A stretch of 64,000 nucleotides of DNA from Candidatus Omnitrophota bacterium (GTDB lineage Bacteria > Omnitrophota > Omnitrophia > Omnitrophales > JACQLI01), in contig JACPCP010000015.1 of the NCBI GenBank assembly GCA_016179745.1, forward strand, positions 45,608 through 109,607, given 5' to 3'. The notes under the pieces are model-generated. The model did no database searches and was not told the origin of the DNA. It saw only the letters and a list, made by a program, of their open reading frames with translations. The position numbers and the translations under genes were made by a program. This document shows, piece after piece, positions 13,768 to 63,723 of the stretch. Position 1 is the first letter of the stretch. Every line of letters starts with the position of its first letter.

Positions 13768-13781
13768 GAGGGAATCGGGAA

Positions 13782-47212: not shown

Positions 47213-47344
47213 CCGGTAAACTTACGCCGTCCGTGAGCCGTAACACAAATAGGCCATTCAAAGCTCGCAAGATCAAGGTTGAATCGGAGGCCGAAAACGG
47301 GTATAGTGCCATTTACAAGACACAACGTTCGAATCTGAAAGTTG

Positions 47345-47381
47345 CCCCAGGCAGTAAATAATTGCTTGGGTTTTTTGCTAA
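47345..47381 (+). terminator. Rho-independent terminator about 135 nt downstream of nuoH
   Basis: CCCAGGCA-GTAAATAAT-TGCTTGGG (8 bp including one G-U) followed by TTTTTTG. Confidence 0.65.
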
Positions 47382-47397
47382 AAAGGGGGCATAACTG

Positions 47398-48315
47398 TTG
47401 GAAACAATTCAAGATAGAGAAAGCGTGATAGCGAAAAAGAGATACAACCTTTGGGTGATTGTCTGGATCGTTGGGATGCATCTGGGGGCCCTCGCCGCCC
47501 CGTTTACCTTTACCTGGCCGGCCTTTTTCCTCTTTGCCTTCCTTGCCTGGCTCACCGGAGGCATCGGAATCACCCTTTGTTACCACCGCCTGCTCACCCA
47601 CGGCTCCTTTAAAGTCCCAAAATTCCTGGAATACCTCGTCACCTTTTGCGGCCTCCTGGCCTCCGAAGGAGGCCCTATCAACTGGGTGGCCCGTCACCGG
47701 ATCCACCACGCCTTTCCGGATACCGATAAAGACCCCCACAGCCCCCGCCACGGCTTTTGGTGGTCTCACGTCCTTTGGCTTTTTGTCCACAAACCGATTT
47801 TTGATAACTATGAGCTTTACTGCTCGTATGCCCCGGATTTGGCGAAGGATCCCGTTCACCAGTTTTTTAACCGCACGCACGGCCTCTATCAGATTCTCTT
47901 GGGGATTGCTCTTTATCTGTGGGGAGGATTCCCCTTTTTAGTTTGGGGGCTCTTTCTCCGGACCGTTTTTGTTTATCACGTGACCTGGTTCGTGAATTCC
48001 GCGACGCACAAGTGGGGTTACAAGACCTATGCCCTGAAGGATGACTCCAGCAATCTCTGGTGGGTCGCGCTTTTGTCGTTCGGAGAGGGGTGGCATAATA
48101 ATCACCACGCCTTCCAAACTTCAGCCCGGCACGGCCTGAAATTCTGGGAGTTTGACCAGACCTACCTCACCATTAAATTTCTCGAGCTCCTCCGCCTGGC
48201 GCGTGATATCCACGTTCCGAAGTTTCCGAAGCTGCCCCGCCCTCACCTCCCCTCTGTGAATTTGCCGAAGATCGAGAAAATTCCAGGCGTTCCTTCCTTC
48301 GAATCGATCGCTTGA
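47398..48315 (+). CDS. Membrane fatty-acid (acyl-CoA/acyl-lipid delta-9-type) desaturase
   Basis: Three His boxes: HRLLTH, HRIHHAFPDTDKDPHSP and HNNHHAF. TTG start after a GGGGG RBS. Confidence 0.88.
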   Translation: METIQDRESVIAKKRYNLWVIVWIVGMHLGALAAPFTFTWPAFFLFAFLAWLTGGIGITLCYHRLLTHGSFKVPKFLEYLVTFCGLLASEGGPINWVARHRIHHAFPDTDKDPHSPRHGFWWSHVLWLFVHKPIFDNYELYCSYAPDLAKDPVHQFFNRTHGLYQILLGIALYLWGGFPFLVWGLFLRTVFVYHVTWFVNSATHKWGYKTYALKDDSSNLWWVALLSFGEGWHNNHHAFQTSARHGLKFWEFDQTYLTIKFLELLRLARDIHVPKFPKLPRPHLPSVNLPKIEKIPGVPSFESIA

Positions 48316-48349
48316 TTCGTTAGCCTTCCTACTGTAATTTGTCCCTGCT

Positions 48350-48892
48350 GTGAGCATTCCAACCAAGGTCGTCCGCCGTCCTGAGCTGACGTTTTGGGAT
48401 CGGCTTTACCTTCCCCAGGTGCTGGCCGGGCTTTGGGTCACGTCCCGGCATTTCTTTTTCAATCTCTTCTTTCATATCCTTCATCGGTTCGGACTCTTTA
48501 AATGGATCCGGGCCGCTGTCACGTTTCAATACCCCGAGGAGCAAAGGCCCTTGGTGCCCCGTTCCCGGACGCGCCACCGGCTTACAAAGCGTGACGACGG
48601 TTCCCCCCGCTGCGTGGCCTGCATGATGTGCGAGACGGTTTGTCCGGCAACCTGCATCACGATCACGGCCGAGGAGCACCCCGACCCGAATGTCGAGAAG
48701 CGGCCCAAGAGTTTCGTGATCGATCTCGGCAAGTGCGTCTACTGCGGCTTCTGCGTGGAGGCCTGCCCCGAGGATGCGATCCGGATGGACACGCAAATCC
48801 TCGACATTGCGGCCTACTCCCGGGAGGCCATGGTCCTCGACATGCCCGAGCTTTTGAACCCCCGCTCCGCCCGCATCGTTTCTTCGAAGTAA
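48350..48892 (+). CDS. nuoI: NADH-quinone oxidoreductase subunit I (2x[4Fe-4S])
   Basis: FQYPEE, CVACMMCETVCPATCI and CVYCGFCVEACPEDAI. GTG start. Confidence 0.88.
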   Translation: MSIPTKVVRRPELTFWDRLYLPQVLAGLWVTSRHFFFNLFFHILHRFGLFKWIRAAVTFQYPEEQRPLVPRSRTRHRLTKRDDGSPRCVACMMCETVCPATCITITAEEHPDPNVEKRPKSFVIDLGKCVYCGFCVEACPEDAIRMDTQILDIAAYSREAMVLDMPELLNPRSARIVSSK

Positions 48893-49228: not shown

Positions 49229-49296
49229 TACTTTACTCGTTGTCTCAAAGCTCTTATGAATCAAGCTATCCTGGTCAGGAGTTCCGTCTCCCGGTA

Positions 49297-52200
49297 ATGG
49301 AAGTAAAACCCCGGCGGAGTCAGAAGGGCTTTTACTTTAGACTCACCACCTGGGCTGTTCTCATCACCTTCTCAACCCTCCAGATCGCCTGGGCCCAGGG
49401 GCCCGAAGCCCTCAAGCCGGCTGAAACGATCCGCCAAGCCCCCATCGATCCAAAATCCATTTCTCAGGAAGACTGGAAATCATCTTCCCAGACCGCAAAA
49501 CCGGTGGATCAAAAAACTTCGACCGACTACCTCATGGATGATTTCCCCCTGACTCGGGCGGACAAACAAGAGACCGAAGGCGAAGCGGCCGAGAAACGTG
49601 CCTTGACCCGCCAGACGATCCAATGGGAGAAACCCAGGATCACCTATTATTCCAACGGCAGGAAGAAGTCCTGGCAAAGACGGGGCACTGAGAATGGAAA
49701 GCTGAAGAGGCGTGAACTGAAGACCTATGACCCCCAGGGCAAAATCACCCGGGACCTCGACGAGACCTACCACCCGAATGGAAGGGTCGCAATCTCAGAT
49801 GACCGCCGTTACCTTGCAGGCGTCCTTGACAAACGCACCTACAAGACCTTTAACACACAAGGCCGGTTGACCCGCACTCTTTTCCGGGACTATGACCCCC
49901 ATGAAAAGCTCAGGATCTTGGACGACACCTCTTACACCAATGGCCACAAGACCGGGCGCCACCGGAATGAATACGACAGTTCCGGGATTCGCCTGAGTTA
50001 CCTTCGGGAAACCTTTTTCTCCGGAGAGAGCCTTAAAACTTCGGATAGTTACCGCTATTCGAGTGGCCGGCTCACCCAGAGGACCTACCAGGAACGAGAT
50101 GCTTCAGGAAATCAAATCGTCTCTCAATCCCGCGATTACACCGCCCCCCTCTACACGAATCTTCGGGATTTCGTATTCGAATACGCTGTAGACGGTTCCC
50201 CCTACACAGAGTCTTTCTCATTTACCGCCGAGGGCTCCACCCGGTTCCAGACGACAAAGGCCGGATACCTTGGGGCCGAAGTCAAGCTCGATATTGAAAT
50301 CATCTTTGATGAGACCCCGCCCGGAGCGGGTTCGGTGGCCCTCAGTGGCAATGCCGTTTACTCTCGGTCGGCTTCCGTAAGCCTTACTCTTGAGGTTGAT
50401 GACAACTGGACCACCGATGCCAATATCCAAATGGCCTTCTCCCAGAATGGAGGACAGACCTTTGGCGCCTTCGAAGCCTTCAACACCCAGAAGACACTCG
50501 CTCTTGAAGGCAGTGACGGCACCAAAGAAGTCATCGTCCGTTTCAAAGACGAAGCCGGCAACACCCTCGATGCCACAGACACGATTCACCTCGACCGCGC
50601 AATTCCTACCGGCAGCATCAATATCAATTCGGGGTCTTCTTACACAACCTCCACGGCCGTCACCCTAAATCTGGCTGCCCAGGACTCGGGCTCTGGCATT
50701 GATAAGATGAGTTTCTCCCAGGACAATACGGCTTGGACCGCCCCCGAGGCCTACAACGCCACGAAGAATTTCACTCTTCCTTCAGGAGACGGAACCAAGA
50801 CCCTTCGTGTGAAGTTTTACGATAAAGCCGGAAACGAGAGTCAGGTTTATTCCAAGTCCATCACTTTGGATTCAACCCTTCCTGACGGCTCCATCACAAT
50901 CAATAACAGTAATCTCTACACTTCCTCTCCTACGGTGACTCTTGCCTTGAGCGCCAACGATCCCACTTCAGGGGTTGCCGATATGCGTTTCTCAAACAAT
51001 TTCGGTTTCCAGTGGTCCGACTGGGAGCCTTTTGGCACAAGAAAGGATTGGACCCTTTCCTCTACCAATGGAGAAAGATGGGTTGCTTACGAGGTTCGCG
51101 ATTGGGCCGGCAATATCGCCAGGCTCTATGACTCCATCATCCTAGATACCCTTGCTCCCACTGGCTCCCTCAATATCAATTCAGGGGCCGTTTACACTGG
51201 TACTCCCACCGTGACCTTAAATCTTTCAGCCCAAGACTCGGGTTCCGGGATCGATAAGGTAAGTTTCTCTCAAGACAATACAACCTGGACTGCTCCCGAG
51301 GTCTACAACTCCACAAAGACCTTTACCCTTCCCTCAGGAGACGGGAATAAAACCGTCTACCTCAAGTATTACGACAAGGCAGGGAATGTAAGTGCGGTCT
51401 ATTCCAAATCCATTATTCTGGATACCCTTCCGCCCTCAGGCACGGTGCGGGTCAAGAATAGCGTTCAGTTTGTCAATCAGCGTTTCATTGATCTGGAATT
51501 CTCTGCCAGTGATGCAGGGTCAGGACTTGATTGGGTGAGGGTGTCGAATGACAACTCCACCCTGACCGAGATCCCCTACACGACCCTGGTGCCCGGCTGG
51601 GCTCTCTTGGAACCCGATGGCGTCAAAACCATCTACGTGCAATTTAAGGACAAATTCGGCCGCTGGTCGAGCCTTGTGACGACGACCGTCACATTGGACC
51701 GGGTGAAACCAGGGGTTTCCGCTGCGATCAGCTCAGGAAAGACTTACTCCAATTCGAGCCCGGTCATCGTAAATTTGCTAGCCACAGATGACCGAAGCGC
51801 CGGGACCAAACTACAGATGAGATTTGCAGTCGATGGCACAGCGGAAGGAAGTTTCAATGCCTGGGAGTCTTTGGGATCCCAGAAATCAATCAAGCTTCCA
51901 GAGGTTGACGGCAGCCACACGGTTTTCGCGGAGGTGAGGGATGAAGCCGGGAACATCAACCAAGCCTCAGTTTCCATCACTCTGGACCGGACGGCTCCGA
52001 CCGGTGGAGTCAAAATCAACAACGGGGCAGACCGAACGGGATTGAGAAAGGTCACGCTGACCCTGGATGCCCAGGATGCCTCGACCCAGGTGGAGAAGAT
52101 GCGGATTTCAGAAGACGGCGGGGCGAGCTGGACCCCCTGGCAGGATTTTTCAAACCAGATTGACTGGACTTTCGGGGGGCTTGAAGGGACGAGGGAAATC

Positions 52201-55200
52201 AGGGTCGAAGTAGGGGATTCGGCCGGGAATACCGCAACCTTCTCGGACACCATCGAACTCAACACTTCCATACCCCAGATCGCATTCACCTCCCCCTCCT
52301 CGACGGGTGATTCTCTTTACACCCTCCGCTACAAAGTGGATGGGGTGGAGCGAAGCGAAACCTGGCGTCTCGCCCCGGGGGCGAATCCACTTTTGGTGCG
52401 TGTCTCAGAGGATGGAAGACCACCGGCCTTTGCGAAGTTCACCGTGACACTCAATCAGTCGGAGCCCGCCCGTCCTTTGATGCCGAATGCTCCAACGCTG
52501 GCGGAAGACCTCATTTCAGTGACGACGGAGGGGGGGTTGGTTCTTAAATATGATAATAGCGTCCTCGTGGCCATGGAGAAACCCGGGGAGTATCAACTTT
52601 ATCTGCCGGAAGTGGATGGCAGCGGGAATCTCACAGGCGGATTAGTCCGATTTTCCGAAGGAGGTGAAATCTACTATGGGGACGGAAAAGTCGTTTGGCG
52701 CAAGGACCCTCAACAAAACACCTACTATTACAATCCCGACGGTTCTGTGCGGGAAGTGGCCGGACCGGAGGGACAAAGAAGTGTTTTCTCCTATCGCTTG
52801 GATTCCGAAAATGGCAAGGTCATGGAGACCCTTGTCTCCTCTTCAAAAGACACGAGCCTTTACGATGCCACGGGCCGCCTTCTACTAACCTTGAAAATCA
52901 ATGGGGACGTGGTTCATTACGACGGAGGAATCCTGGATTCAGTTGAGCGAAAAGGTACGGGCGAGGTCCTTCATTACGGCCGCACTGATGACCCCAAGAC
53001 GGGCGAAGTGACCGTGAGTGTTACGGGCTCCGCGACCCCCTTTCAAGAATACCCCTCGAGAGTCCGCTACGACCGCGAGGGCCAAATTCTCGAGGTGGTC
53101 GAGCCGGACGGGACTCAGATAAATTTTAAAGACGGCCTTCCAACCGAAAAAATCGAATTCATTGAAGGCGAAGTCCGTAAAACAAGCTATCAATATAAGA
53201 CGAATCCCCTTGAGGATCTTATCGGTCTCCAGATCTCAGGGACTCAATTGAAGCGGAGCTTCGACGCCCAAGGCAGACTCGGTGCGCTTGAAACCGACGG
53301 CGTTGAATTAAAAATTTCGGGGAACCTGGTGGAATCTCTGACCCTTCTTGAGGGAAGTGAAGGAGGATTTCCCTCGGGCACCACTGTTCGCTACGAAGAG
53401 CGGAATTCGCTCAAGCGGGCCCTTGTCAGTTATCCCGAGCCGGATGCAAGAAAATTAACCTACGAGGTAGAGGAAGGCGGGGATCGGTACACACTTCGTG
53501 AAATCCAGTTGCCAGATGGGACGATTCAGCGGTTTCGTCCGAACGGCAGCCTGGGATCCCTCGAGACTTCGGACGGAAGAATTTATGAATACGAGGCGGC
53601 GCCCGGCGGCGGGCGGTCCTTTTTGAAGGAATGGCGGCTTGCGGACGGCCGCAGGCTTTACTTCAAAAAGAAAAACCCGGATGCCCCGCTTCAATTATTC
53701 CTTGTCGAATTCCCGGATGGGCGGAGGATCGAAAATATCACATTCGACCCGGAGGGGCGCCTCAACCAGGCCGACGAGCGGGTCCCTGAGCGAGGGGCCG
53801 TTTCCTCACATGTGGACCACTATGAATCCGGCCGGCTTGTGAAGCGAAGTTTCCCCGATACGTCCGAGCTCCTTTTTAATGAGGACGGTATTTTTTATTC
53901 CTATCGTGATCCCCGAGGCGAAACCTACCAGGTTCGTGAGGAGAAAGGGCCCCAAAACGAGACGACCGGGTTCCGATTTGAAGGGTCCCGGGAGACGGTT
54001 GTCTATTCCCGGGAAGGCGTTCTGACCCGTTACCTCTCAAACGGGGTTTCATTTGAATTTGACCGGGAAGGAAAGGTTGCTTGGGCCAAGACTGTTTTCG
54101 GAGAAATCCAAAACCCCCTTTGGAATGAGGCCCAGGAACTCATTAGCGGCAGGGTCAGCCTGGCCGATGGATCTCGATATTTCCTGGAGGGTGGAAAGAT
54201 TGCCCGAATTCTTCGGTCCGACGGCTTGGAGATTACTTATACGGGGGACCGTGCCGCCCGGCTTGTCAAAGAGGATACGACACTTTTGCTGGAATATATC
54301 ACTGAGAACACGGGCTTGCTTAAGGGGGCTTTTGTCAGATACGAGACAGAAGGGGGACTTACGAGCGACGGCCTGATTAATTTTCTCATCCGCCCCGAAC
54401 GTGCCGGCGAGGCCGGAGAGGTTTTTGACGCACCGCTTGAAAATCTACTGACCTCCGGGAAAAGCCGGACAAGTGTGGCTGCCGTCCACCGGGTCCCTCT
54501 TGCCCTGGGAGTGGTCGAGCGAGGCAGTGCTTCAAACGGAGGTTGGTGGTTCGAAGTGATATTTGATTCTGCCGAAGTTTCGGAGGGACTTACACCGACC
54601 CTGAGTTTGGCGCCCAACCCTTTTCTCAATCACATGAATCTGGGCTACCAGATTTCGGAATCCGCCTCCGAGCCCCTCAATGATTTGATAAACTTTGGCA
54701 TTGCGGGCAACTTTGTGCTCAATGGCGGCCGGGTTCCGCTTGGGGCCGCCAGCATCGGGTCGAGAAAGGGTTTTCCGCTTAATTATGACGTCTCCCCTCC
54801 AGGAAGCTCAGTGGGTTTTTATGTGTCTTACGATGCGGATTGGATTGAAGGAATCGAAACACGGGATTTCTCAGGTTTGGGAGAGGTTGTTTTAAAAACG
54901 AAGGGGGAACTTGGGACGGTTTTGACGCTTGAGCTGACAGACCGTGAAAACCGACGAAGCCGGATCTTTTTGCGTGGGATTGACAACAGCGAGCGCTTTT
55001 TTAATCTGGATTTTTCCCTTTTTCAAGGTGTTGACATCACTCACATCAAATCGGTCAGCTATATCCTGGAAGGCGACCGGCAGCTTGTAAAGACCGGAAC
55101 GCTGGATATCCAATGGGGCAGCCCTTTCGTTGCTTTATCTCCGCAACCAGAATTGGATTCGACAAGCGGAGTCGAATTGCCGCAATTTCAATGGCTTCAC

Positions 55201-58200
55201 GTAGTGCCCCAAAAGTATCCTGCCTATCCCCAGGGTGTCTCGGATAAATTCGTAACCACTCGATCGTCCGATTCCGAGATGGAATTTCATTTCGAAGGGG
55301 CATCGGATTATTACACGGCTTCCGCCGTCTTTGATTACGATCTTGCGAATACGAAAGACGTGGTGGAATACAAGGACCTTTCAGCCTTTGCGGGTCTTCT
55401 GCTGGGAAGCGAGAGAGCGGTCGAAGGGATCAACTTTTTTTCGATTCAGGATGCACATGGGAACCGGGCCCGTGTGAGGTTGTTCGGCAACGCCGGGACC
55501 CCCAATTTTTATTTCTTGGATCTGGATAAGATGGGCATCGATCTCAGGCGGGTCCGTTCCCTGGCGTTTGTCTACAATGATCCAAAGGTGGAAGACGGAC
55601 GGGTATGGCTCCGTGGGATTCCCCGTGAGGGCCCCGTCCCCTTCCCAGCCGTAAATCCCGATACGGATGAGCTTGCCATTCTCGCCGACGAGACCGTGAC
55701 GGTGGCTGTGAACCCGGGCGAACTTGTCCGATCCGATTATCTTAGCGTGAGCATTCGGCCTCCTCCGGGCGTGGTTGATTCAAAGGCCGTGCTAACTCTC
55801 GGTGAGGCCGTCTATCGAACAGAAACCCTATCAGACGATTGGAGCCACCTGGTAATTCCCCTCGCCAAATTTTCCGGGGCGCAGGCCGATTCTCTTCAGA
55901 TTTCCTTTGAAGGAAGCACAAGAGAGGGAAGCTACTTGATCGACAATCTCGTTTTAATGCGTTTCCAGGATAATTCGGCATCAACCCTTTTGCCCAAACT
56001 CAGGGTGACAGCCGAATCCCTTTCGCAAGGGGAGAGAACTCACCTTCCGGATCTGGCGAAACTCTCAGCCTCTTTCGTCTCCGAGTTTTCCGGGCGCAAT
56101 GAAACACCGGCTCGGATCCATTCCGAACTCGGAGCCTTGACGAGTGTCGTGACCGACATTTTTTATGATTCCAATGGCCAGATCAAAGAGGTAAAGACCG
56201 GTGATGGAAAAACTCTCGTGATGGCCGAGGAAGGGCTCCAGCAGGCTTTGTTCAGTCAGGGAGTGACCGTTGATTACGGATCCGGCCCAGGAAACGAACC
56301 TCAATCCTTGACGGTTGCGGGCCCCGGAGGAAATCAAGCCCCTCTTTCGGCGAGCTATCAATACGGACGTATCCGGGAAGTGAGGCGTTCGGACGGCTCC
56401 CGCCTTCAATATGGATACGAATTCATAGACGGGGCCGAAATCACGGTCGTCAAGACACCGCTTGGGACGGAGCCTGAGACCTATGAGATCAAGCGCTATC
56501 ACCGAGATCCCGGGAACCCTTATCAGATCGGCCAGCTCTTGTCGGTCGAAGAACCCACCGGCCTTCTGACGGTCTATGAGTATGGAGCCGGGTCCGGAGG
56601 TCCCGAGGCGCCGCTTAAGCTAAGCCGGACTTATTACAAGGGGCGGTTGCGTTCGGAATTTAGTTACGAGTATCGGGAAGGCCGGACGTTTGTGACCGAT
56701 CAAGAGGGCACGGTCACGGAGTATGATTCTGATGGCCGACTTCGTTCCCACACGACGCCGGATGGTTTCCGCTACGAGCATCTCTTCGAAGATGAAAACT
56801 TTCGGGTGATTGACGGCCGAAGTTACCTTAACGGGAAACTCATCCGCCTTGAAACGGAGGGTTTCACCATTGAAGAAGCAGTGACCGACTCAGAAGGTTT
56901 CCTCACAGAGGCCCTGCTTCTTTACCAGGATGGTCACCGGACATTTTTCGTGAAGGGAGCCCCCTACCTGACCACCCGGGATGTTGGAGAAGCCACCTTC
57001 TTTGATCCGGCTAAGGACGGCGAAAACCCAGGCTTTCAAAACGAAATGTCCAATTTTCGGCTCGCTCAAACGCTCTGGAAGGGTGCCCCCAAGAGTCCAG
57101 CGGCAGAGATCCTGCCGGAAAAAGTTGAGGTGGTTCGGCTTGTTTCGAGGGAGTCGGACGAGATAAGCGCGGAATACCGCGAAGGGAGACTCGAGGACCT
57201 TCGGTTTAAGGAAGATGGAATGGAGGTGACGGGCCTTTCCTATGACCGAGACGGGGAGCTCGATGGAGCCCGGATCAAACTGGACGACGGAACCGGATTT
57301 CTGTTCCAAGAAGGGCTTCATGTTATCCGGAGCCGCTCAAATGAGGTCGTCGAGCGCCTCACCCCGTGGGATCCCCCCCTGGCCTACCGAAATGAATCCG
57401 AACGCTGGGAACGTTTAAAGATGCAGTCTGCGACTTTTGTCCGGAGCCCCGATGAGACCGGCCGCTCCAAGAAAACGGATCTCGGAATGGCCCTTTACGA
57501 TGAAACAGGCCGTATCCTTGAAATCCATTTGAGGGCGGAAGGAGTCATTCTAAGGGATTTCGAATTTAACGACCGGGGAAAACTGGTGCGGGCCAAAGTT
57601 TTTTCCGGAGGAGAGGAAACGACTGAATACCGCGAGGGTTTATCCCTTTCCTACCAGGGGGGCGACGGAAGGCCTGGGAAAGTCTTTTCCCTGTTTGACG
57701 AGGGCAACTTCCATTATGAATCGGCGAGGAGCCGTTGGAAAGTTTGGAAGGAAAAGATATCAGAGTATCTCCTGGACCCGGCTTTTGTGTTTGAGACCGA
57801 GCTCGATAGCGAGGGCATGATCCTCACCCTCACCAAAGCGAACCAATCCGTTTCAGTCTATGAAAAAGGAAAAGTTGACCAGGTTTTCGATCAGGAAGGA
57901 AGGCTCCTGATTACAAACCGGTACGACCCCCTCGAGGGAATGCTCATTTCCATCACGATGGTGGATGCCCGCAGGCGGCTTGAGGAAGACACCTTTGAGG
58001 CCCGGCGCGACCTCCGGAGGCAAAAGGTCCTGGCGCTTGAGAAATTGGCCCGCGATACGGATCTGGCCACGCAGGCGCTCCGGGACCAATTTGAGGGACC
58101 ACGGAAAATTCTTCTGGCTCAGCGCGCCAATGTGGAGTCACTTTTGGCGAACCTTGAGGCAACCAAAGTGCGCGGCAAGCAGGGGAAACGGGAGAAATCG

Positions 58201-61194
58201 GGCGCCTTGGATCAGATCCGGGGAGCGCTTCACCAGATCGAGAGCGCCCTTTCCGAACTCGACCGTAAGTATGCAGAAGCGATTGAATCCCTCTCCCAAA
58301 AAGCCGCAGAGGTTGCGAGCCAGATTGAGTCCGAGACTGGGCGGGCGCTCCAAAAGCTTGAAAAAACAAGGGCGGATTATCTGGCCGAAATCTTAAGGCA
58401 GGAGATCGCTCCGGTCCTGCATGACCTTTACCGGAATGCCCTGGGCCGTGACCCGGGCGAAGAAGAGACCCGCGAAGCCATCCGTGAAAAGGAGACCGGA
58501 ACCTTTGATTCCCACACCCTCCGGGCGAAACTCCTTAGAAGCGCGGAATACCAAGCCCGTCTTGACGAGGTGAATCGGATTCGAGAGGGAGTCCGAGAAA
58601 CACTCGCGCTCTACCTCGCGGGCCGTTATTCTGCGACGGACGAGCTTGGTCTCACTGAGAAGGAAGTGGTTTCACTCACTTCCGAGGAAGCTGACCAAAT
58701 TCTTCAGTGGCTGGATGGCCACGATCTTCATTTTGGACATTCGGCCTTTCTAGCGATGGAGAGTCTGCTCCGGGATGAGGGGAGAAATGTCTCCCTTCGG
58801 GAACTCGCTGCCCGGGCGATTTTAATCGACATCTTTTCCGGTGTGATCGGTCCTTTTGAGGAAGGGGAGCTTAAACTGAGCCTCTTTGCCTTGGAACGGA
58901 CCGCCCGATTTTACGGGGTAACGTTCTATCCCGCTGAAGTCAGTTATGAGGAACTGAGACAAATGGTTCTGGGCGGCAAGAAAGTAATGGTCCATCTGAA
59001 AGGGGATCACTACACGGTGATTACCGGCTTTGAGACGGTCTCGGAAACCCAAGTTCTTTGTCAGGACGGCCGGCCGGTCGAGATTCAGGTTCCGGTGGAA
59101 AAGGTGAAGACCCTGGAGCGGAATAAGGGGGCGGCGGGAGAAGAAGTGGTGCTCACGAAGGAGCAATTCCTCGATGCCTGGCTTCAGGGTGAAGGAGAAA
59201 AGGGATTTGTCCTCTCGGCCGTCGCGGCCGATCCCCGAGGGACCGGGACGGTTCTGACCCAGGAAAAGGCCCAATCCGTCCGGGGCGCCTTCTTTTTCTT
59301 TATTCCTTTTATCATCTCAGTCCTTGTTTCGGTCATTCAGGCGGTGATTGCGGTGGTGATTGCTGTGGTGGCCGCTGTGGTGGCTGCCGTGAGTGCCGTG
59401 ATCTCAGCCGTGGTCGGGGCCATCTCCAATTTGGTGACGACTCTGGGGCGGGGCCTGAGCTATTTGGCCCGGGGTTTCCAAGCGGTGGGGAAATTCCTTT
59501 TCGAAGGGGTTCGGGACGTAGGGAAACTTCTCTTAAAGGGCCTCCAGTTTGTCGGCTCCAGGCTTTACCAGGGATTTCAGGCGGTGGGCCATTTCCTGAA
59601 AGAAGCAGCTCTCAACTTGGGAGGAAAGCTCTGGCAGGGGATGGAGAAGATCGCTACGAAGCTCGCCCAGGGATTCACCAAGCTCTTCTCAAAGCAGGAC
59701 CTGACCAAACTTTTTTCAGTCAAGGGCGGGGCCACCAGCTTCAAGACAAGCCTCCTTAAGAATGCCCTGGGCTACGGCCTTAATTTCTCCCTTTCCAAGG
59801 GATTGGATTCGTTAGGGATTGATTTCCCAGGTCTCAATCTTCTTACCTCCTTTGTGACCGGAGGGATTGCCGGATTAACCGACAATGCCTCTTCCACGAG
59901 CTTCTTTACAAGTGCCCTCAAGAAGCTCACCCTCACGGGTCTTTCCACCCTGGCTCTCCACCTCGATCTCCCGCCTCCCATCGCCAACGCGATTTCTCTT
60001 GTTGGTGCCACCCTCGTAGGTGCCACGCTTGACCCTTCCGTTACTGTCCCCGAAGCCCTGAAAGACCTTGCCCCCACCCTTACCCGTGACTTGACCTTCC
60101 AGGGAATTCTTTCTGTCGGAGAAGCCATTGGTCTTGATCCCCGCTTATCAGCATTGATCGGCATTCCGATTAGGGCAACTGTTGGCAGTATCACAGGGAA
60201 TGCCTTGGGGGTGAAGGGGTACGAGGACCTCTTCGGAGAAATTACGAGTCAAACTATCGGTGGCCTTGTTTCTGTCGGCTCAAGCATTGGTTTGAATGCT
60301 GTTGGTGCCTCGCCCATTCTCCAAAGCTTCCTTCCAAGTTTCTTGGGTAACTTTGTTGCGGGTTTTGGTGGTACACCCGGTGGGTCTGATGCTATCCAAC
60401 GAGAAGGCGAAAACATCTTTAAGAAAATTACAGATGGCATTATTAAGTTTGGAAAGGGCCTTGCCTCCGCAGTCGGAAATGTCACATCCTTCGGCACAAA
60501 GGTTATTGAAGGTGGAGTTAACCTAGTGAAGCAGGGATTCGCTAAGGCGGTGGATTTCTTCAGCGGCGTATTTGACCGGCGGACGCAAGAAGCTTTGATC
60601 CAGGCTGGGGGCGGTAACATCGAGCAGGCCATCCTCAATAATGCAACGATTGTTAATGGAACCGCCAGAGCGTCCATCGATGGCGTTGAAATCGTTTGGG
60701 ATTCTGCGTTAGATAAGCTGACCTATACTGGTCCGGCGGGTGTAAGCGCGGCATTTTCCAAATTGGTTATGGACACAACTGGGAATTTCGGGATGGGGGA
60801 TTTTGCCTATGCTGAAACTACGCAAAACAGTGCAGTCATCAACTTAACTTCTAAAAAGTCTTACATTGAAGCTTCGGTTACGATGGACGATAAGCGCATT
60901 GTGGTTGAGTCCTTGGGCGGACGAGACCTTGTGAGCCGAACGTTGGGTCCATTTGTAAGGCCTACAGTTGTATTTGAGAGCACAGCGGCAGAGAATAATT
61001 ATCAAATTAAAGTAGATATGGAAAAAGGTGGTTTGACAGAAGTAAAAGCACCTTGGGAATATGTGACAGCAATTAAAGATTTCTTCACGCAGGGGGCTTT
61101 TAAGAGTATCGTTCAAGAGTATTTGAAAGACCAAATCGAGGATTTATTAACACCAATTTTTGAAAAGTTAGACGAAATTTTGAGAAGAAAATGA
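49297..61194 (+). CDS. Giant secreted/membrane-anchored multidomain protein (~3,965 aa)
   Basis: Single uninterrupted 11.9-kb ORF. The ATG at 49297 gives a signal peptide (KPRRSQK, then LTTWAVLITFSTLQIAWA|QG). Domain order:
- YD/MORN-like hairpin repeats (about 49640-50130, 52560-54400, 56150-57700)
- seven Ig-like repeats
- three CBM-like modules
- a coiled coil (about 57960-58400)
- a DUF4214-like motif (LYRNALGRDPGEEE)
- a C39/papain-like domain
- a TM hairpin
- 11-mer repeats
- a Gly/Leu/Ser-rich tail. Confidence 0.85.
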   Translation: MEVKPRRSQKGFYFRLTTWAVLITFSTLQIAWAQGPEALKPAETIRQAPIDPKSISQEDWKSSSQTAKPVDQKTSTDYLMDDFPLTRADKQETEGEAAEKRALTRQTIQWEKPRITYYSNGRKKSWQRRGTENGKLKRRELKTYDPQGKITRDLDETYHPNGRVAISDDRRYLAGVLDKRTYKTFNTQGRLTRTLFRDYDPHEKLRILDDTSYTNGHKTGRHRNEYDSSGIRLSYLRETFFSGESLKTSDSYRYSSGRLTQRTYQERDASGNQIVSQSRDYTAPLYTNLRDFVFEYAVDGSPYTESFSFTAEGSTRFQTTKAGYLGAEVKLDIEIIFDETPPGAGSVALSGNAVYSRSASVSLTLEVDDNWTTDANIQMAFSQNGGQTFGAFEAFNTQKTLALEGSDGTKEVIVRFKDEAGNTLDATDTIHLDRAIPTGSININSGSSYTTSTAVTLNLAAQDSGSGIDKMSFSQDNTAWTAPEAYNATKNFTLPSGDGTKTLRVKFYDKAGNESQVYSKSITLDSTLPDGSITINNSNLYTSSPTVTLALSANDPTSGVADMRFSNNFGFQWSDWEPFGTRKDWTLSSTNGERWVAYEVRDWAGNIARLYDSIILDTLAPTGSLNINSGAVYTGTPTVTLNLSAQDSGSGIDKVSFSQDNTTWTAPEVYNSTKTFTLPSGDGNKTVYLKYYDKAGNVSAVYSKSIILDTLPPSGTVRVKNSVQFVNQRFIDLEFSASDAGSGLDWVRVSNDNSTLTEIPYTTLVPGWALLEPDGVKTIYVQFKDKFGRWSSLVTTTVTLDRVKPGVSAAISSGKTYSNSSPVIVNLLATDDRSAGTKLQMRFAVDGTAEGSFNAWESLGSQKSIKLPEVDGSHTVFAEVRDEAGNINQASVSITLDRTAPTGGVKINNGADRTGLRKVTLTLDAQDASTQVEKMRISEDGGASWTPWQDFSNQIDWTFGGLEGTREIRVEVGDSAGNTATFSDTIELNTSIPQIAFTSPSSTGDSLYTLRYKVDGVERSETWRLAPGANPLLVRVSEDGRPPAFAKFTVTLNQSEPARPLMPNAPTLAEDLISVTTEGGLVLKYDNSVLVAMEKPGEYQLYLPEVDGSGNLTGGLVRFSEGGEIYYGDGKVVWRKDPQQNTYYYNPDGSVREVAGPEGQRSVFSYRLDSENGKVMETLVSSSKDTSLYDATGRLLLTLKINGDVVHYDGGILDSVERKGTGEVLHYGRTDDPKTGEVTVSVTGSATPFQEYPSRVRYDREGQILEVVEPDGTQINFKDGLPTEKIEFIEGEVRKTSYQYKTNPLEDLIGLQISGTQLKRSFDAQGRLGALETDGVELKISGNLVESLTLLEGSEGGFPSGTTVRYEERNSLKRALVSYPEPDARKLTYEVEEGGDRYTLREIQLPDGTIQRFRPNGSLGSLETSDGRIYEYEAAPGGGRSFLKEWRLADGRRLYFKKKNPDAPLQLFLVEFPDGRRIENITFDPEGRLNQADERVPERGAVSSHVDHYESGRLVKRSFPDTSELLFNEDGIFYSYRDPRGETYQVREEKGPQNETTGFRFEGSRETVVYSREGVLTRYLSNGVSFEFDREGKVAWAKTVFGEIQNPLWNEAQELISGRVSLADGSRYFLEGGKIARILRSDGLEITYTGDRAARLVKEDTTLLLEYITENTGLLKGAFVRYETEGGLTSDGLINFLIRPERAGEAGEVFDAPLENLLTSGKSRTSVAAVHRVPLALGVVERGSASNGGWWFEVIFDSAEVSEGLTPTLSLAPNPFLNHMNLGYQISESASEPLNDLINFGIAGNFVLNGGRVPLGAASIGSRKGFPLNYDVSPPGSSVGFYVSYDADWIEGIETRDFSGLGEVVLKTKGELGTVLTLELTDRENRRSRIFLRGIDNSERFFNLDFSLFQGVDITHIKSVSYILEGDRQLVKTGTLDIQWGSPFVALSPQPELDSTSGVELPQFQWLHVVPQKYPAYPQGVSDKFVTTRSSDSEMEFHFEGASDYYTASAVFDYDLANTKDVVEYKDLSAFAGLLLGSERAVEGINFFSIQDAHGNRARVRLFGNAGTPNFYFLDLDKMGIDLRRVRSLAFVYNDPKVEDGRVWLRGIPREGPVPFPAVNPDTDELAILADETVTVAVNPGELVRSDYLSVSIRPPPGVVDSKAVLTLGEAVYRTETLSDDWSHLVIPLAKFSGAQADSLQISFEGSTREGSYLIDNLVLMRFQDNSASTLLPKLRVTAESLSQGERTHLPDLAKLSASFVSEFSGRNETPARIHSELGALTSVVTDIFYDSNGQIKEVKTGDGKTLVMAEEGLQQALFSQGVTVDYGSGPGNEPQSLTVAGPGGNQAPLSASYQYGRIREVRRSDGSRLQYGYEFIDGAEITVVKTPLGTEPETYEIKRYHRDPGNPYQIGQLLSVEEPTGLLTVYEYGAGSGGPEAPLKLSRTYYKGRLRSEFSYEYREGRTFVTDQEGTVTEYDSDGRLRSHTTPDGFRYEHLFEDENFRVIDGRSYLNGKLIRLETEGFTIEEAVTDSEGFLTEALLLYQDGHRTFFVKGAPYLTTRDVGEATFFDPAKDGENPGFQNEMSNFRLAQTLWKGAPKSPAAEILPEKVEVVRLVSRESDEISAEYREGRLEDLRFKEDGMEVTGLSYDRDGELDGARIKLDDGTGFLFQEGLHVIRSRSNEVVERLTPWDPPLAYRNESERWERLKMQSATFVRSPDETGRSKKTDLGMALYDETGRILEIHLRAEGVILRDFEFNDRGKLVRAKVFSGGEETTEYREGLSLSYQGGDGRPGKVFSLFDEGNFHYESARSRWKVWKEKISEYLLDPAFVFETELDSEGMILTLTKANQSVSVYEKGKVDQVFDQEGRLLITNRYDPLEGMLISITMVDARRRLEEDTFEARRDLRRQKVLALEKLARDTDLATQALRDQFEGPRKILLAQRANVESLLANLEATKVRGKQGKREKSGALDQIRGALHQIESALSELDRKYAEAIESLSQKAAEVASQIESETGRALQKLEKTRADYLAEILRQEIAPVLHDLYRNALGRDPGEEETREAIREKETGTFDSHTLRAKLLRSAEYQARLDEVNRIREGVRETLALYLAGRYSATDELGLTEKEVVSLTSEEADQILQWLDGHDLHFGHSAFLAMESLLRDEGRNVSLRELAARAILIDIFSGVIGPFEEGELKLSLFALERTARFYGVTFYPAEVSYEELRQMVLGGKKVMVHLKGDHYTVITGFETVSETQVLCQDGRPVEIQVPVEKVKTLERNKGAAGEEVVLTKEQFLDAWLQGEGEKGFVLSAVAADPRGTGTVLTQEKAQSVRGAFFFFIPFIISVLVSVIQAVIAVVIAVVAAVVAAVSAVISAVVGAISNLVTTLGRGLSYLARGFQAVGKFLFEGVRDVGKLLLKGLQFVGSRLYQGFQAVGHFLKEAALNLGGKLWQGMEKIATKLAQGFTKLFSKQDLTKLFSVKGGATSFKTSLLKNALGYGLNFSLSKGLDSLGIDFPGLNLLTSFVTGGIAGLTDNASSTSFFTSALKKLTLTGLSTLALHLDLPPPIANAISLVGATLVGATLDPSVTVPEALKDLAPTLTRDLTFQGILSVGEAIGLDPRLSALIGIPIRATVGSITGNALGVKGYEDLFGEITSQTIGGLVSVGSSIGLNAVGASPILQSFLPSFLGNFVAGFGGTPGGSDAIQREGENIFKKITDGIIKFGKGLASAVGNVTSFGTKVIEGGVNLVKQGFAKAVDFFSGVFDRRTQEALIQAGGGNIEQAILNNATIVNGTARASIDGVEIVWDSALDKLTYTGPAGVSAAFSKLVMDTTGNFGMGDFAYAETTQNSAVINLTSKKSYIEASVTMDDKRIVVESLGGRDLVSRTLGPFVRPTVVFESTAAENNYQIKVDMEKGGLTEVKAPWEYVTAIKDFFTQGAFKSIVQEYLKDQIEDLLTPIFEKLDEILRRK
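50311..52263 (+). repeat. Seven tandem ~92-aa Ig-like domain repeats within the giant ORF
   Basis: Recurring pattern P(T/D/S)G.I.IN.G..YT....V.L.L.A.D..SG...M.FS......W...E.....K.W.L....G.K.V.V...D.AGN. Units 2 (50599-50874) and 4 (51151-51426) are about 75% identical at the aa level. Confidence 0.8.
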
Positions 61195-61736
61195 AAAAGA
61201 TTTTCAGTTTTCTTGCTATTGTATTTCTCCTTGTCATTACAGCTGTATTTGTATTTTCTGATTATCTCTCTGGTAATTTCACAAGTTATAAGATCCCTCT
61301 TGATTCTATGGCACCAACGATAAGCACCAACGACTTAATAGCAGTTGCTACTGGAGCATATGAAAAGACCCTACCAATGAGAGGTGATATTATCGTTTTT
61401 ATAACACCGTTTGATGAAAAAAAGAAATTCGCTAAAAGAATAGTTGGTTTGCCCGGTGATAAAGTTGAGATTAAAGAAGGTAAGGTTTACGTAAATGGGA
61501 AACGAATTCAATCTGATAGATTTCCAGATAATCGATATTATTTAACTCATGGAGATTGGGACTATGGGAATGAAGGCCAAATCATAGATGTGCCGGACAA
61601 TATGTATTATGTGTTGGGCGATAAGAGTGCGCATTCCAGTGATAGCAGGCAATGGGGATTTGTTCCCGCTAAAAACGTAATTGGTAAAGCAACAGTTGTT
61701 TATTGGCCGCCTTGGCGATGGAAATTTATAAAATAA
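61191..61736 (+). CDS. lepB: Type I signal peptidase (S26 family, short Gram-positive-like form)
   Basis: N-terminal TM, SMAPTI (Ser nucleophile box), GDIIVF, KRIVGLPGD (Lys box) and GDKSAHSSDSRQWGFV. ATGA overlap with the giant ORF stop. Confidence 0.88.
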   Translation: MKKIFSFLAIVFLLVITAVFVFSDYLSGNFTSYKIPLDSMAPTISTNDLIAVATGAYEKTLPMRGDIIVFITPFDEKKKFAKRIVGLPGDKVEIKEGKVYVNGKRIQSDRFPDNRYYLTHGDWDYGNEGQIIDVPDNMYYVLGDKSAHSSDSRQWGFVPAKNVIGKATVVYWPPWRWKFIK

Positions 61737-61759
61737 CGTCAAAAGTCGGAAAAAGAAAA

Positions 61760-61784
61760 AATGGCGTCACTTCCAAACGCCATT
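61760..61784 (-). terminator. Hairpin terminator oriented for the minus-strand small ORF
   Basis: AATGGCGT-9 nt-ACGCCATT. On the minus strand it is followed by TTTTTTCTTTTT. Confidence 0.55.
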
Positions 61785-62034
61785 ACGGGTACCACATTAC
61801 CGCCTCTCCAATGATCCGGGTCTTGTAAGGGTGAGCGAGTTTGACTTCCACTTCCCATCTTTGAAGTAAACCCACGATCCGATACCCGCTGCAGATCACC
61901 TCCAGAGTGGCTTTAATTTTCCCTTCCCAGTGCTTGAGGTAAAGCGTAAAATGCCCCGGCTCGCTGGAAAGGTTCCATTGCTTCCACGCTTGACCCGTTT
62001 CATCTAGGAATATCCCTGCGAGAAAGATCAACAA
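61783..62034 (-). CDS. Hypothetical small protein (~83 aa)
   Basis: This is the C-terminal part of ORF 61783-62223. I chose the TTG at 62034 because the upstream part would overlap dapF antisense. It has its own terminator. No family was recognised. Confidence 0.3.
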   Translation of the reverse strand: MLIFLAGIFLDETGQAWKQWNLSSEPGHFTLYLKHWEGKIKATLEVICSGYRIVGLLQRWEVEVKLAHPYKTRIIGEAVMWYP

Positions 62035-62444
62035 TGAAAGAAATTTCCTTTTATAAAATGGCGGCGTCGGGGAACGATTTTGTGGTGATCGACAACCGTG
62101 CCCGGAAAGTTTCAAATTTGCCGGCCCTGACCCGGGCCGTTTGCGACCGGCACCGGGGCGTGGGGGCTGACGGGGTCCTCTTGCTCGAACCCTTAGCGAA
62201 GGAAAAAGGGGACGGCCCCCCAAAAAGGGGACAGTCCCCTTTTTCTTCGAAGAAGGCCGATTTCCGGGTCCGGATTTTTAATTCGGACGGTTCGGAAGCG
62301 GAAGCCTGCGGCAACGGATTTCGCTGTGCGGCCTTGTTTGCGAAGGAAAAATTGGGGCTTCCCAACCGGCAGCAATTTGAGTCTCTCTCCGGAATGATTC
62401 ATAGTAAAAACGGTAGCATTTCCAAAAGTGCCGGGTTGAGGTAA
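62034..62444 (+). pseudogene. dapF: Diaminopimelate epimerase, 5' ~45% only. It is truncated at a RAYT element and carries an in-frame palindromic-element insertion.
   Basis: SGNDFVVID, RHRGVGADGVLLLEP and DFRVRIFNSDGSEAEACGNG (first catalytic Cys). Homology ends at about FESLSGMIH. The frame then runs into the left inverted repeat and stops. Confidence 0.8.
62203..62244 (+). repeat. Palindromic element copy inside dapF (AAAAAGGGGACGGCCCCCC, then the perfect palindrome AAAAAGGGGAC-A-GTCCCCTTTTT)
   Basis: Read directly. It translates in frame as EKGDGPPKRGQSPFS. Confidence 0.85.
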
Positions 62445-63179
62445 AATCTCCCCGTAGTTTTTTAACTCTCAATCTCACAGGGTTGTGGCGGACACGTAAA
62501 AATCAGGCACAGCCGATTCACCCTCCTTTGAAATATAAAAAGGAGGACCCCATGCCCCGCAAACCAAGGGAACTTGTCAATGAAGGAATCTACCACCTCT
62601 TCAACCGTGGTAATGACCGAAGGAACCTTTTTCAGGAGGCCCCGGATTTTCACCATTTTCTCAGCCTGCTTTTGCAAGCGGCAAAGAAATACCCTTCGGA
62701 GATCTTCCATTACTGTCTGATGACCAACCACTTTCACCTCCTGGTCCGGATTGCCCGGGGAGAAGATCTGCCTCCCTTCATGCATCTGGTCCAGCTCGGC
62801 TATGCCCGTTACTTCAAGAAGAAATACGGCTTCGTCGGTCATGTCTTCCAGGAAAGATTCCGCAGCCCACGTATCCCCGAAGAAAGCTACTACCTCCAGT
62901 GCGGCCGTTACATTGAGAGAAACCCCGTCTCAGCCCGCCTGGTCAAGGATCCCTGGGACTACCCCTATTCCAGCGCCCCTTTTTATGCCTCCGGAGAAAC
63001 CGATCCTTTAGTTACCCCGAATCTTTATTACGAGGGGATGGCGACCGACAGTGAAGAGCGGAGGCGGCGCTATCGGGAATTTCTCTCAGCCGAGGAGCCT
63101 TACGCCGGGATGATTGACAAGGCACTGGTTAAGGTCTGAACGTGGAAACTGTTGAACCCGGCACTTTTGGAAATGCTAC
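62413..63179 (+). mobile_element. RAYT/IS200-like unit: a Y1 transposase gene bracketed by perfect 25-bp inverted repeats (REP-like)
   Basis: The left repeat GTAGCATTTCCAAAAGTGCCGGGTT (62413-62437) is the exact reverse complement of 63155-63179. Each 25-mer can itself form a 6-bp hairpin. Confidence 0.8.
62552..63139 (+). CDS. REP-associated tyrosine transposase (Y1 HUH, IS200/IS605 TnpA-like)
   Basis: AGGAGG RBS 5 nt before the ATG at 62552. YHLFNRGNDRRNLF, CLMTNHFHLLV (the HUH motif is HFH), and GYARYFKKKYGFVGHVFQERFRS. Confidence 0.85.
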   Translation: MPRKPRELVNEGIYHLFNRGNDRRNLFQEAPDFHHFLSLLLQAAKKYPSEIFHYCLMTNHFHLLVRIARGEDLPPFMHLVQLGYARYFKKKYGFVGHVFQERFRSPRIPEESYYLQCGRYIERNPVSARLVKDPWDYPYSSAPFYASGETDPLVTPNLYYEGMATDSEERRRRYREFLSAEEPYAGMIDKALVKV

Positions 63180-63193
63180 GCTAAATCTAGGCG

Positions 63194-63373
63194 TTGAAAA
63201 ACAAGCCAACACAAATATCTGATTTTATTCCTCCTGAAGATAAGCTGTTGAGTGTTCGCCGTTCCACGGTCAATCCTGTTTCACCAAACGATCCGGAAGT
63301 TAATCAGTATGAACTTCTGACGGAGGGAGAGGAATTGTTAGAAGCGTGGTTCAAAAACAGGAGAAATCTATGA
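63194..63373 (+). CDS. Hypothetical 59-aa protein (low-GC)
   Basis: TTG start, below the ORF-track cutoff. Reads MKNKPTQISDFIPPEDKLLSVRRSTVNPVSPNDPEVNQYELLTEGEELLEAWFKNRRNL. Its stop overlaps the next ATG (ATGA). Confidence 0.3.
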   Translation: MKNKPTQISDFIPPEDKLLSVRRSTVNPVSPNDPEVNQYELLTEGEELLEAWFKNRRNL

Positions 63374-63723
63374 TTAAGGATGTGAAGAACGAAGAAGACT
63401 TAGTAATTATTATCTCGGAAAAGGGACAAGCTTCTTTGCGACTCGGCGTAAAGGTTGCAGAGATTTTGAAATTTGAAGATTCGATAATCGTCAGAACGGC
63501 CGCTATCAGCAAGGAGAGGGCCCGCAACATCCACCGATACTCAGAAGACGGCACCAAAATCTGGACGGTGGAGGAGCCGGAAGGTGTCAAAGATCAGGCG
63601 AATGCTTTTACGGGATTAAGGCTGAATGAGAAAGACGGAATCATCGGATACACATGGGTGGGAACGAAGCATAGAATTGATTTTGCTACCGGCAAACTCC
63701 TCAGCAGCGAATTCACCAAATGA
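63370..63723 (+). CDS. Hypothetical 117-aa protein (low-GC)
   Basis: I preferred the ATG at 63370 (MIKDVKNEEDL...) over the GTG at 63346. No family was recognised. Confidence 0.45.
   Translation: MIKDVKNEEDLVIIISEKGQASLRLGVKVAEILKFEDSIIVRTAAISKERARNIHRYSEDGTKIWTVEEPEGVKDQANAFTGLRLNEKDGIIGYTWVGTKHRIDFATGKLLSSEFTK

Follow-up and report, generated by a model that had tools for sequence, protein, structure and literature searches.

A mosaic 3′ end in an Omnitrophota giant gene joins a C-terminal tail to a probable accessory type I signal peptidase gene

Why does a single giant gene change its base composition shortly before its stop codon, and why does the signal peptidase gene that follows share the change? 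The question is raised by a 64,000-nt stretch of DNA from a Candidatus Omnitrophota bacterium (GenBank contig JACPCP010000015.1, positions 45,608 to 109,607), which we call the window and whose own numbering we use throughout. It holds a gene for a protein of 3,984 amino acids (aa), whose stop codon overlaps the start codon of lepB, a gene for a type I signal peptidase of the S26 family. An initial annotation, made from the DNA letters alone, had noticed a fall in GC content over the end of the giant gene and lepB. It proposed that the last ~330 codons and the peptidase gene had been exchanged together, in a layout reminiscent of Rhs and CdiA polymorphic toxin loci. Comparison of the locus with its relatives indicates that the block from 60415 to 61736 was very probably exchanged between distantly related giant genes. 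The features on which the argument turns are these (GC3 is the GC content at third codon positions).

49240 to 61194, plus strand: giant open reading frame (ORF), 3,984 aa, from the ORF list and its translation.
58651 to 60441, plus strand: C-terminal module, putatively for delivery or anchoring, defined by profile A1 and common to hundreds of Omnitrophota giant proteins.
60163 to 60441, plus strand: transition stretch at the end of the module, GC3 0.44; it begins at the position equivalent to the first residue of an orphan fragment in locus L007.
60415 to 61736, plus strand: putatively exchanged cassette, delimited at the DNA level and comprising the junction arm, the 125-aa tail, and the S26 peptidase gene.
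60442 to 60816, plus strand: junction, 'SFGTKVIEG...FAKAVDFFSGVFDRRTQEALIQAG...', ending in F-A-Y-A-E (60802 to 60816).
60817 to 61191, plus strand: tail of 125 aa, predicted to form beta strands and then, at the C terminus, a long amphipathic helix.
61191 to 61736, plus strand: lepB, probable accessory type I signal peptidase of family S26, 181 aa; its start codon overlaps the giant-gene stop (ATGA).

Mosaic identity along the giant gene

Upstream of the cassette, the closest relative of the giant gene is that of locus L009. By sliding identity, the L009 protein matches at about 60% as far as 60.59 kb and at 34% from 60.59 to 60.74 kb, with noise beyond, and its nucleotide similarity to the window ceases at 60335. 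In contrast, the giant protein of locus L024 is 20 to 44% identical upstream and 60 to 68% identical from about 60.44 kb to the stop codon, and its LepB is 71% identical. A single blastn high-scoring segment pair of 1,339 nt, with 70.7% identity, joins window positions 60415 to 61736 to L024 positions 20144 to 21468. It terminates exactly at the lepB stop codon, and blastn found no nucleotide similarity to L024 upstream of 60415. The L024 giant has another N-terminal architecture (a pectate-lyase-like beta helix and GH115_C) and lnt downstream. Despite the different architecture and flanks, it carries the same tail and an ATGA-coupled S26 gene. Because the near relative L009 has an unrelated tail and the distant L024 shares that of the window, constraint alone is unable to explain the tails.

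We found the same tail and lepB in a third locus, L027, where junction plus tail are 55% identical to those of the window and LepB is 61% identical. The window tail by itself is 65% identical to the tail of the L024 protein (P0005). Thus the tail-S26 pair occurs in three of three loci, and this tail type occurs only with an S26 partner. The flanks beyond the cassette differ among the loci, being a dapF fragment in the window, lnt, or another ORF. In all three hosts the cassette has a GC3 of 0.29 to 0.39, against 0.44 to 0.62 for the hosts' own genes.

The first part of the junction (60442 to 60591) is 60 to 64% identical to each of L024, L009, and L007, and sequence unique to the window's tail type begins at 60817. 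We regard the junction as a probable homologous-recombination arm. Exactly where the module gives way to the tail, members of the subfamily nearest the window conserve the motif A-[FY]-A-E; it occurs in at least 10 representatives and in front of at least 7 different, unrelated tails. P0001 of locus L007 is 38% identical to the window protein from the C39-like peptidase domain of the module to '...FAYAE' (window 60816) and then continues into an unrelated 328-aa tail. The gene downstream of P0001 is also different; it overlaps the giant gene and encodes a 116-aa membrane protein. P0002 is likewise divergent, with a 544-aa tail and a PD40 lipoprotein as partner. The tails of P0001, P0002, and L009 have no similarity to the window tail.

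Locus L007 holds a further trace of exchange. At 4118 to 5176, downstream of the P0001 tail and its partner gene, lies a 5′-truncated second copy of a module gene. This orphan 3′ fragment opens with 'MPIRASIG...', which aligns with 'IPIRATVG' of the window (~60163), and it runs into the common tail type of the family. It is the signature of a displaced 3′ end. The orphan starts close to the 60.2 kb at which the initial annotation had placed the boundary. The joint exchange that the annotation proposed is upheld, but the block that can be demonstrated is shorter on the giant-gene side, about 250 codons (60415 to 61191) plus lepB rather than ~330 codons plus lepB. The alignment of homologues that it had called for showed relatives with different tails; the same C terminus everywhere was not found. 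The likeness to Rhs and CdiA layouts is likewise borne out, by incongruence along the gene, the DNA-level match, the co-varying partners, and the orphan fragment.

Base composition across the boundary

Over the whole 64 kb, GC averages 0.552 with a standard deviation of 0.037 (600-nt intervals). The lowest interval, 60951 to 61550, has a GC of 0.338, about 5.8 standard deviations under the mean, and apart from this block every 600-nt interval has a GC of at least 0.45. A maximum-likelihood fit with two breakpoints placed them at 60990 and 61760, with a GC of 0.353 inside. The hand counts of the initial annotation were close: we obtained 0.65 at 59401 to 59460 (it gave 0.67), 0.45 to 0.50 at 60241 to 60360, 0.417 at 60421 to 60480, and 0.35 at 60961 to 61020. 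It was also right that the boundary falls within a single ORF (49240 to 61194). Its abrupt edge at about 60.2 kb needs revision, because the drop is real but has two steps. GC is 0.48 to 0.52 at about 60.05 to 60.8 kb, and the deep minimum of 0.33 to 0.42 runs from about 60.8 to 61.0 kb as far as 61.75 kb. GC does recover after 61.76 kb, but the dapF gene in which the annotation placed this recovery is merely a 136-aa fragment.

The codon-level check that the annotation had suggested gave the same picture. GC3 is 0.60 over the giant gene and 0.62 in the C-terminal module. It begins to fall at about 60.04 to 60.26 kb, and stands at 0.44 in the transition stretch, 0.53 in the junction, 0.376 in the last 125 codons of the giant gene, and 0.287 in lepB. 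The drop goes beyond amino-acid bias alone, because it is strongest at third, synonymous codon positions. Upstream of the giant gene, the genes at 42497 to 48892 (NADH-dehydrogenase-type genes for a NuoE/F fusion, NuoG-like, and NuoH, together with genes for a fatty-acid desaturase and a ferredoxin) all have ordinary GC. Therefore, the low-GC block is restricted to the 3′ end of the giant gene.

Could the boundary be an artefact, produced by the amino-acid bias of the tail or by an erroneous fusion of reads from two organisms near 60.2 kb? The module is enriched in Gly, Ala, and Leu, and the tail favors Lys, Glu, Thr, and Val; this contrast adds to the GC difference at first and second codon positions. 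However, the drop is greatest at the third position. In addition, six contigs from six sequencing runs, separately assembled, are 99.96 to 100% identical to the window across 60.0 to 60.5 kb. The reading frame is unbroken, and the junction is homologous to family members on either side of 60.2 kb. The mis-join that the initial annotation had named as a possible undoing of its proposal is excluded, because six independent assemblies span the boundary and agree. An artefact of composition or assembly is thus effectively refuted, and we give it a negligible chance.

The partner peptidase, the tail, and their possible roles

The window LepB matches Pfam Peptidase_S26 (PF10502, 4e-42) and scores 137.7 bits against TIGR02227 (cutoff 47). 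In the alignment, its Ser39 (in DSMAPT) and Lys82 (in KRIVGLPGD) occupy the positions of the invariant dyad, and it has a hydrophobic N-terminal membrane anchor. Judged from these residues, the peptidase is catalytically intact. Its nearest relatives are four proteins of 177 to 181 aa, with 76%, 71%, 61%, and 49% identity, and four of the five members of this clade retain the dyad. Ordinary Omnitrophota LepB proteins are 213 to 221 aa long and about 50% identical to that of the window. An example of an ordinary lepB lies directly after lepA and has a GC3 of 0.64, against 0.66 for lepA; there is no lepA within the 64-kb window. Because ordinary lepB is longer, linked to lepA, and host-like in GC3, the window gene is best read as an accessory paralogue that travels with the tail. 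An origin of lepB in a foreign phylum was rejected, since the nearest outgroup is Omnitrophota LepB. In NCBIfam, the protein has sub-threshold similarity to the SodX, TraF, and SipW models. A scan of JGI metagenomes with an alignment of the LepB clade returned the already known L025 contig and generic LepB proteins at 42% identity or less.

The L025 contig (73 to 2089; shared with L026 and L028) encodes P0152, the 76% relative. The gene starts 56 nt past an IS66-family transposase gene and has no upstream tail. Its GC is about 0.36 to 0.43, against 0.50 to 0.55 for the transposase gene. DNA similarity to the window starts merely 10 nt before the start codon of this lepB-like gene.

The alternative that lepB is a housekeeping signal peptidase, placed beside the giant gene by chance and similar among loci through constraint and vertical descent, has some points in its favor. 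LepB is a conserved enzyme, so 61 to 76% identity is unremarkable alone; its nearest outgroup is in Omnitrophota and not in a foreign phylum; and the Sec signal peptide of the giant protein needs removal by some type I signal peptidase. This alternative fits poorly with the tails, unrelated in L009 (~60% identical upstream) and shared with the distant L024 (20 to 44%), and with a GC3 of 0.29 to 0.38 against 0.60 within the same ORF. It also does not account for a DNA match that ends exactly at the lepB stop between differing flanks, or for the length, lepA-lepB setting, and host-like GC3 of ordinary lepB. Moreover, one clade member lacks the catalytic Ser, and hence that copy is not housekeeping. 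We consider a chance housekeeping neighbor improbable.

What is the tail with which this peptidase is paired? It has no Pfam or NCBIfam match, and a word-index search of the 125-aa tail alone against 5.8 billion proteins found no homologue; the L024 homologue surfaced only by an exhaustive profile search that included the upstream module. A scan of JGI metagenomes with the tail alignment gave no match. Junction plus tail have no relative in phage records, plasmid records, or IMG/VR contigs, so there is no evidence for a phage or plasmid that carries the cassette. An AlphaFold2 model of junction plus tail, built from a two-sequence alignment, reached a mean predicted local distance difference test (pLDDT) score of 62, and a Foldseek search of that model against the PDB gave nothing below E = 0.1. 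Because of the pLDDT of 62 and the lack of a PDB match, we assign no fold to the tail. No Cys or His is conserved across its three known copies.

The same question can be put to the family. For the 78 representatives whose module is complete, comparison of the last 250 residues gave 27 clusters, and the window's tail type accounts for 2 of the 78. Single-linkage clustering of tails first gave one cluster of 52, which became 45 on re-clustering by the last 250 residues. Because this cluster of 45 persists, we refrain from describing the family as hypervariable. Pfam returned no match for ten alternative tails; the P0001 tail has a weak match to a permuted papain-like amidase (C92, E = 0.005). 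At 11 of 12 loci, GC3 is lower in the tail and its downstream gene than in the module. Behind the related tails of L011, L012, and L013 lie genes for secreted TPR-like proteins that are homologous to one another, and the genes behind unrelated tails are unrelated. Every partner examined has a signal peptide or a membrane anchor, whether a TPR-like protein, a PD40 propeller lipoprotein, a small transmembrane protein, or S26. In L014, from another Omnitrophota metagenome-assembled genome (MAG), the giant gene is followed after 120 nt by dapB (13588 to 14397), without a partner gene. A neighborhood of giant genes with diaminopimelate-pathway genes (dapB in L014, dapF in the window) may be conserved.

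We lean toward the explanation that the window holds an exchangeable 3′ cassette with a cognate tail-peptidase pair, in which the S26 protein is a maturation or release enzyme. In this scenario, the cassette would have been drawn from a low-GC pool, and the previous 3′ end would have been replaced through homologous recombination within the junction, as happens at Rhs and CdiA tips. The same exchange route would yield the alternative tails of the family with their matching partner genes. Tail and peptidase would act as cognate partners on the outer side of the cytoplasmic membrane, where the S26 enzyme could be dedicated to the maturation or release of this tail. The enzyme might cut at or near the conserved A-Y-A/E boundary (here and below, a slash marks the bond). 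S26 enzymes follow an 'AxA' rule at positions -3 and -1, with which this boundary agrees. The tail and the peptidase are likely to be functionally coupled. As to how, we tentatively favor processing by the S26 enzyme, an assignment that comes near to an even call, whereas an immunity role appears doubtful. Processing is favored because of the dyad in four of the five clade members, the precedents for S26 recruitment, the translational coupling, and the AxA-like motif at the boundary.

Several observations weigh against this explanation. The A-Y-A/E site has no hydrophobic h-region before it and so departs from the classical substrates of signal peptidases. The A-[FY]-A-E motif also precedes tails with non-peptidase partners, so a private peptidase is not generally needed, and L027 reads A-Y-T at the boundary motif. 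There are only three tail-peptidase pairs, all from metagenomes. With one 'canonical' tail type in 45 of the 78 representatives, the family is less polymorphic than Rhs or CdiA. Finally, the catalytic Ser is replaced by Ala in P0152, whose gene is isolated beside the IS66 transposase gene; this fits a binding role, as immunity protein or chaperone, better than catalysis.

Some of these points would suit a strict toxin-immunity pair, in which the tail is an envelope-acting toxin that, for example, disrupts membranes through its amphipathic helix, and the S26 protein gives immunity by binding or degrading it. The layout is that of polymorphic toxins, with variable tails past a motif, co-varying genes, low-GC tips, and an orphan fragment. 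The signal peptides or membrane anchors of all partners are as for immunity proteins against periplasm-acting effectors, the P0001 tail has its weak C92 amidase match, and the solitary Ser-to-Ala lepB-like gene beside IS66 resembles an orphan immunity gene for which catalysis is dispensable. However, the search of the window tail against toxin-domain profiles that the initial annotation had asked for revealed no toxin domain, and the tail has no catalytic-type motif or fold match. The Ser-Lys dyad is kept in four of five clade members, although catalysis is usually lost when an enzyme is recruited for immunity. One tail type makes up over half of the family, and S26 or signal peptidase is unmentioned in the most comprehensive catalogue of polymorphic toxins (PMC3482391). 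A strict toxin-immunity pair seems less likely than not, but deserves serious weight as a rival.

The giant protein, its neighbors, and known systems

The giant protein has Pfam matches to Big_3_2, Big_13, Big_7, and RHS_repeat, that is, to Ig-like and RHS/YD repeats. The RHS match (PF05593) has an E value of 8e-7 and 29.7 bits (cutoff 22), and the protein contains six YDxxG[RNK] motifs. Its true start is likely the Met at ~49297, which is followed by a Sec-type signal peptide ending AWA/Q, as read directly from the sequence. At E<=1e-3, profile A1 of the C-terminal module retrieved 490 cluster representatives, of which 186 passed E<=1e-30. Most of these matches are proteins of 3,000 to 5,000 aa with the module near the C terminus, and the module has relatives in 15 genome loci, mostly Omnitrophota MAGs. 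Two parts of the module stand before its Gly/Ala/Leu-rich amphipathic region.

About 58651 to 59230, plus strand: C39-like peptidase domain, from weak C39 matches.
About 59287 to 59439, plus strand: single hydrophobic stretch of ~50 aa, from hydropathy analysis.

The C39 match of the window protein is sub-threshold (E = 0.27), and a Pfam C39 match is precomputed for the L024 homologue. The double-glycine protease 6mpz in the PDB matched with E = 0.068 around the His region of the domain. The motifs 'HFG[HQ]SAF' and 'G[DN]H[YF]xV[IV]T' are kept in the C39-like domain of all close homologues, and the window has HFGHSAF at 58720 to 58760. The expected nucleophile may be Ser instead of Cys, as far as the weak alignment to C39 profiles allows it to be placed.

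Just past the cassette, the flank contains three further features.

61760 to 61784, minus strand: inverted repeat with a 9-bp stem, from a terminator scan, in the 46-nt spacer just after the cassette.
62034 to 62444, plus strand: dapF fragment, 136 aa, with the N-terminal diaminopimelate-epimerase domain only (Pfam, ORF list).
62483 to 63139, plus strand: gene for an IS200-like Y1 transposase (Pfam Y1_Tnp, 3e-11), directly after the dapF fragment.

The inverted repeat scores as a terminator for transcripts of the minus strand, and its stem may also halt transcription from the plus strand. The dapF gene looks disrupted, with one domain found; its C-terminal half was not searched for. The fragment has an odd insert encoded by a G/C-rich hairpin at ~62200 to 62235. 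All six cassette-bearing Logan contigs (L001 to L006) end exactly at window position 62111, inside the fragment, which suggests a repeat or a population-level polymorphism, perhaps an IS200-like insertion. The Y1 transposase gene lies ~750 nt downstream of the cassette. In L007, a gene for a Y1 transposase (IS200-like/RAYT-like; 41% identical) lies at 41 to 568, directly upstream of the 5′-truncated module gene. Y1 elements may rearrange giant-gene loci, or this may be coincidence. Two secondary low-GC stretches occur in the window, at 7200 to 7800 (0.46) and at 63200 to 63500 (0.41). The latter is just past the Y1 transposase gene and overlaps an ORF (63346 to 63723) without a family match.

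Does the locus belong to a known system? Like the Rhs/YD polymorphic toxins, it encodes a large secreted RHS-repeat protein with a demarcating motif followed by variable C-terminal tails. As in Rhs, the partners co-vary with the tail, the tip and partner are low in GC, there is an orphan 3′ fragment, and exchange is deduced from mosaic identity. Unlike Rhs, the window protein has no PxxxxDPxGL core end, and a regular-expression search found no DPxG[LWM] in its 3,984 aa. About 1,300 residues (a coiled coil, the C39-like domain, the hydrophobic stretch, and the Gly-rich module) separate the last YD repeat from the tail, and no PAAR, VgrG, or type VI secretion context is visible in the window. 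Also unlike Rhs, the window tail has no known toxin domain, the partner is an S26 peptidase with an intact dyad, and more than half of the family has one tail type.

In CdiA/CdiB systems, CdiA-CT follows a VENN motif and is followed by CdiI. The window resembles them in its giant surface protein, its motif before a swappable C-terminal region, its cognate downstream gene, and the orphan modules. It differs in that its protein has no VENN and, by Pfam, no two-partner secretion (TPS) or FHA domain; no CdiB-like gene was seen, and export is apparently through the Sec signal peptide. Strict membership in Rhs or CdiA was rejected because the defining motifs are absent. The system behaves like Rhs/CdiA tip exchange and is a member of neither.

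Zhang et al. (2012, PMC3482391) recognize polymorphic toxins by a conserved region with diverse C termini, a toxin domain at the C terminus, a tail-specific downstream gene, and cassette recombination with orphan modules. The family has the first, with 27 tail clusters and with other tails in all of the closest relatives of the window's module. Pfam, NCBIfam, and the fold search gave no toxin domain for the 125-aa tail. Partner genes co-vary with the tail type, with S26 in three of three loci and TPR-like homologues beside related tails, but S26 peptidases with an intact dyad are not known as an immunity family. Recombination with orphan modules is seen in the mosaic, the DNA-level block, and the L007 fragment.

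The gene belongs to the recently described Omnitrophota giant proteins, which are known to have C39 domains and C-terminal transmembrane anchors (West-Roberts et al. 2023, 10.1101/2023.11.21.568195; 2026 preprint, 10.64898/2026.06.07.730766). Like them, it comes from Omnitrophota and encodes a protein of thousands of residues that has a C39-like domain, beta-helical regions of RHS-like type, and, close to the C terminus, a transmembrane segment. The PF03412 architecture cluster is the largest among the giants (10.64898/2026.06.07.730766), and C39 domains are proposed to cut giants into pieces (10.1101/2023.11.21.568195; 10.64898/2026.06.07.730766). Neither signal peptidase nor polymorphic tails nor cassette exchange came up in a term search of these two sources.

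For the peptidase, the closest parallels are extra S26 paralogues in variable regions that move horizontally, each located beside a single surface or secreted substrate and transcribed together with it. Dedicated S26 maturation of one substrate occurs in the pairs SipW-TasA, SodX-SodN, and TraF-pilin. Unlike SodX, TraF, and SipW, the window LepB scores as an ordinary type I signal peptidase (TIGR02227). Also unlike these maturation factors, it would act on the C-terminal tail of a 3,984-aa protein and not on an N-terminal leader. Another S26-family maturation factor is the non-catalytic SipA/LepA of Streptococcus pyogenes pilus islands (PMC4049620). In the relative P0152, as in SipA, the catalytic Ser is gone.

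Omnitrophota have not been cultured, most are ultra-small, and a predatory or host-dependent life is suspected; their giant proteins are the main clue to their cell interactions. If the 3′ ends of the giants are exchangeable cassettes that come with cognate partner genes, then their business end would be the short tail past the A-[FY]-A-E junction, and ongoing diversifying exchange, as in contact-dependent competition systems, would be suggested. More speculatively, these loci could represent an as yet unrecorded polymorphic-effector system of Omnitrophota, in which Sec-exported RHS/C39 giants carry a dedicated C-terminal membrane-insertion module and a tip that is swapped at an A-[FY]-A-E motif serving as the S26 cleavage site for release of the tip, and in which some cassettes bring their own S26 enzyme. 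If true, a trans-acting type I signal peptidase would here act for the first time as releasing peptidase, or immunity factor, of a polymorphic effector, and the tail-S26 pairing would widen the known recruitment of S26 enzymes. A tail type paired with an accessory signal peptidase that keeps its dyad gives a testable handle, namely, whether the peptidase cuts or neutralizes the tail. With profile A1 and the boundary motif together, hundreds of giant genes from metagenomes could be screened for effector domains not seen before.

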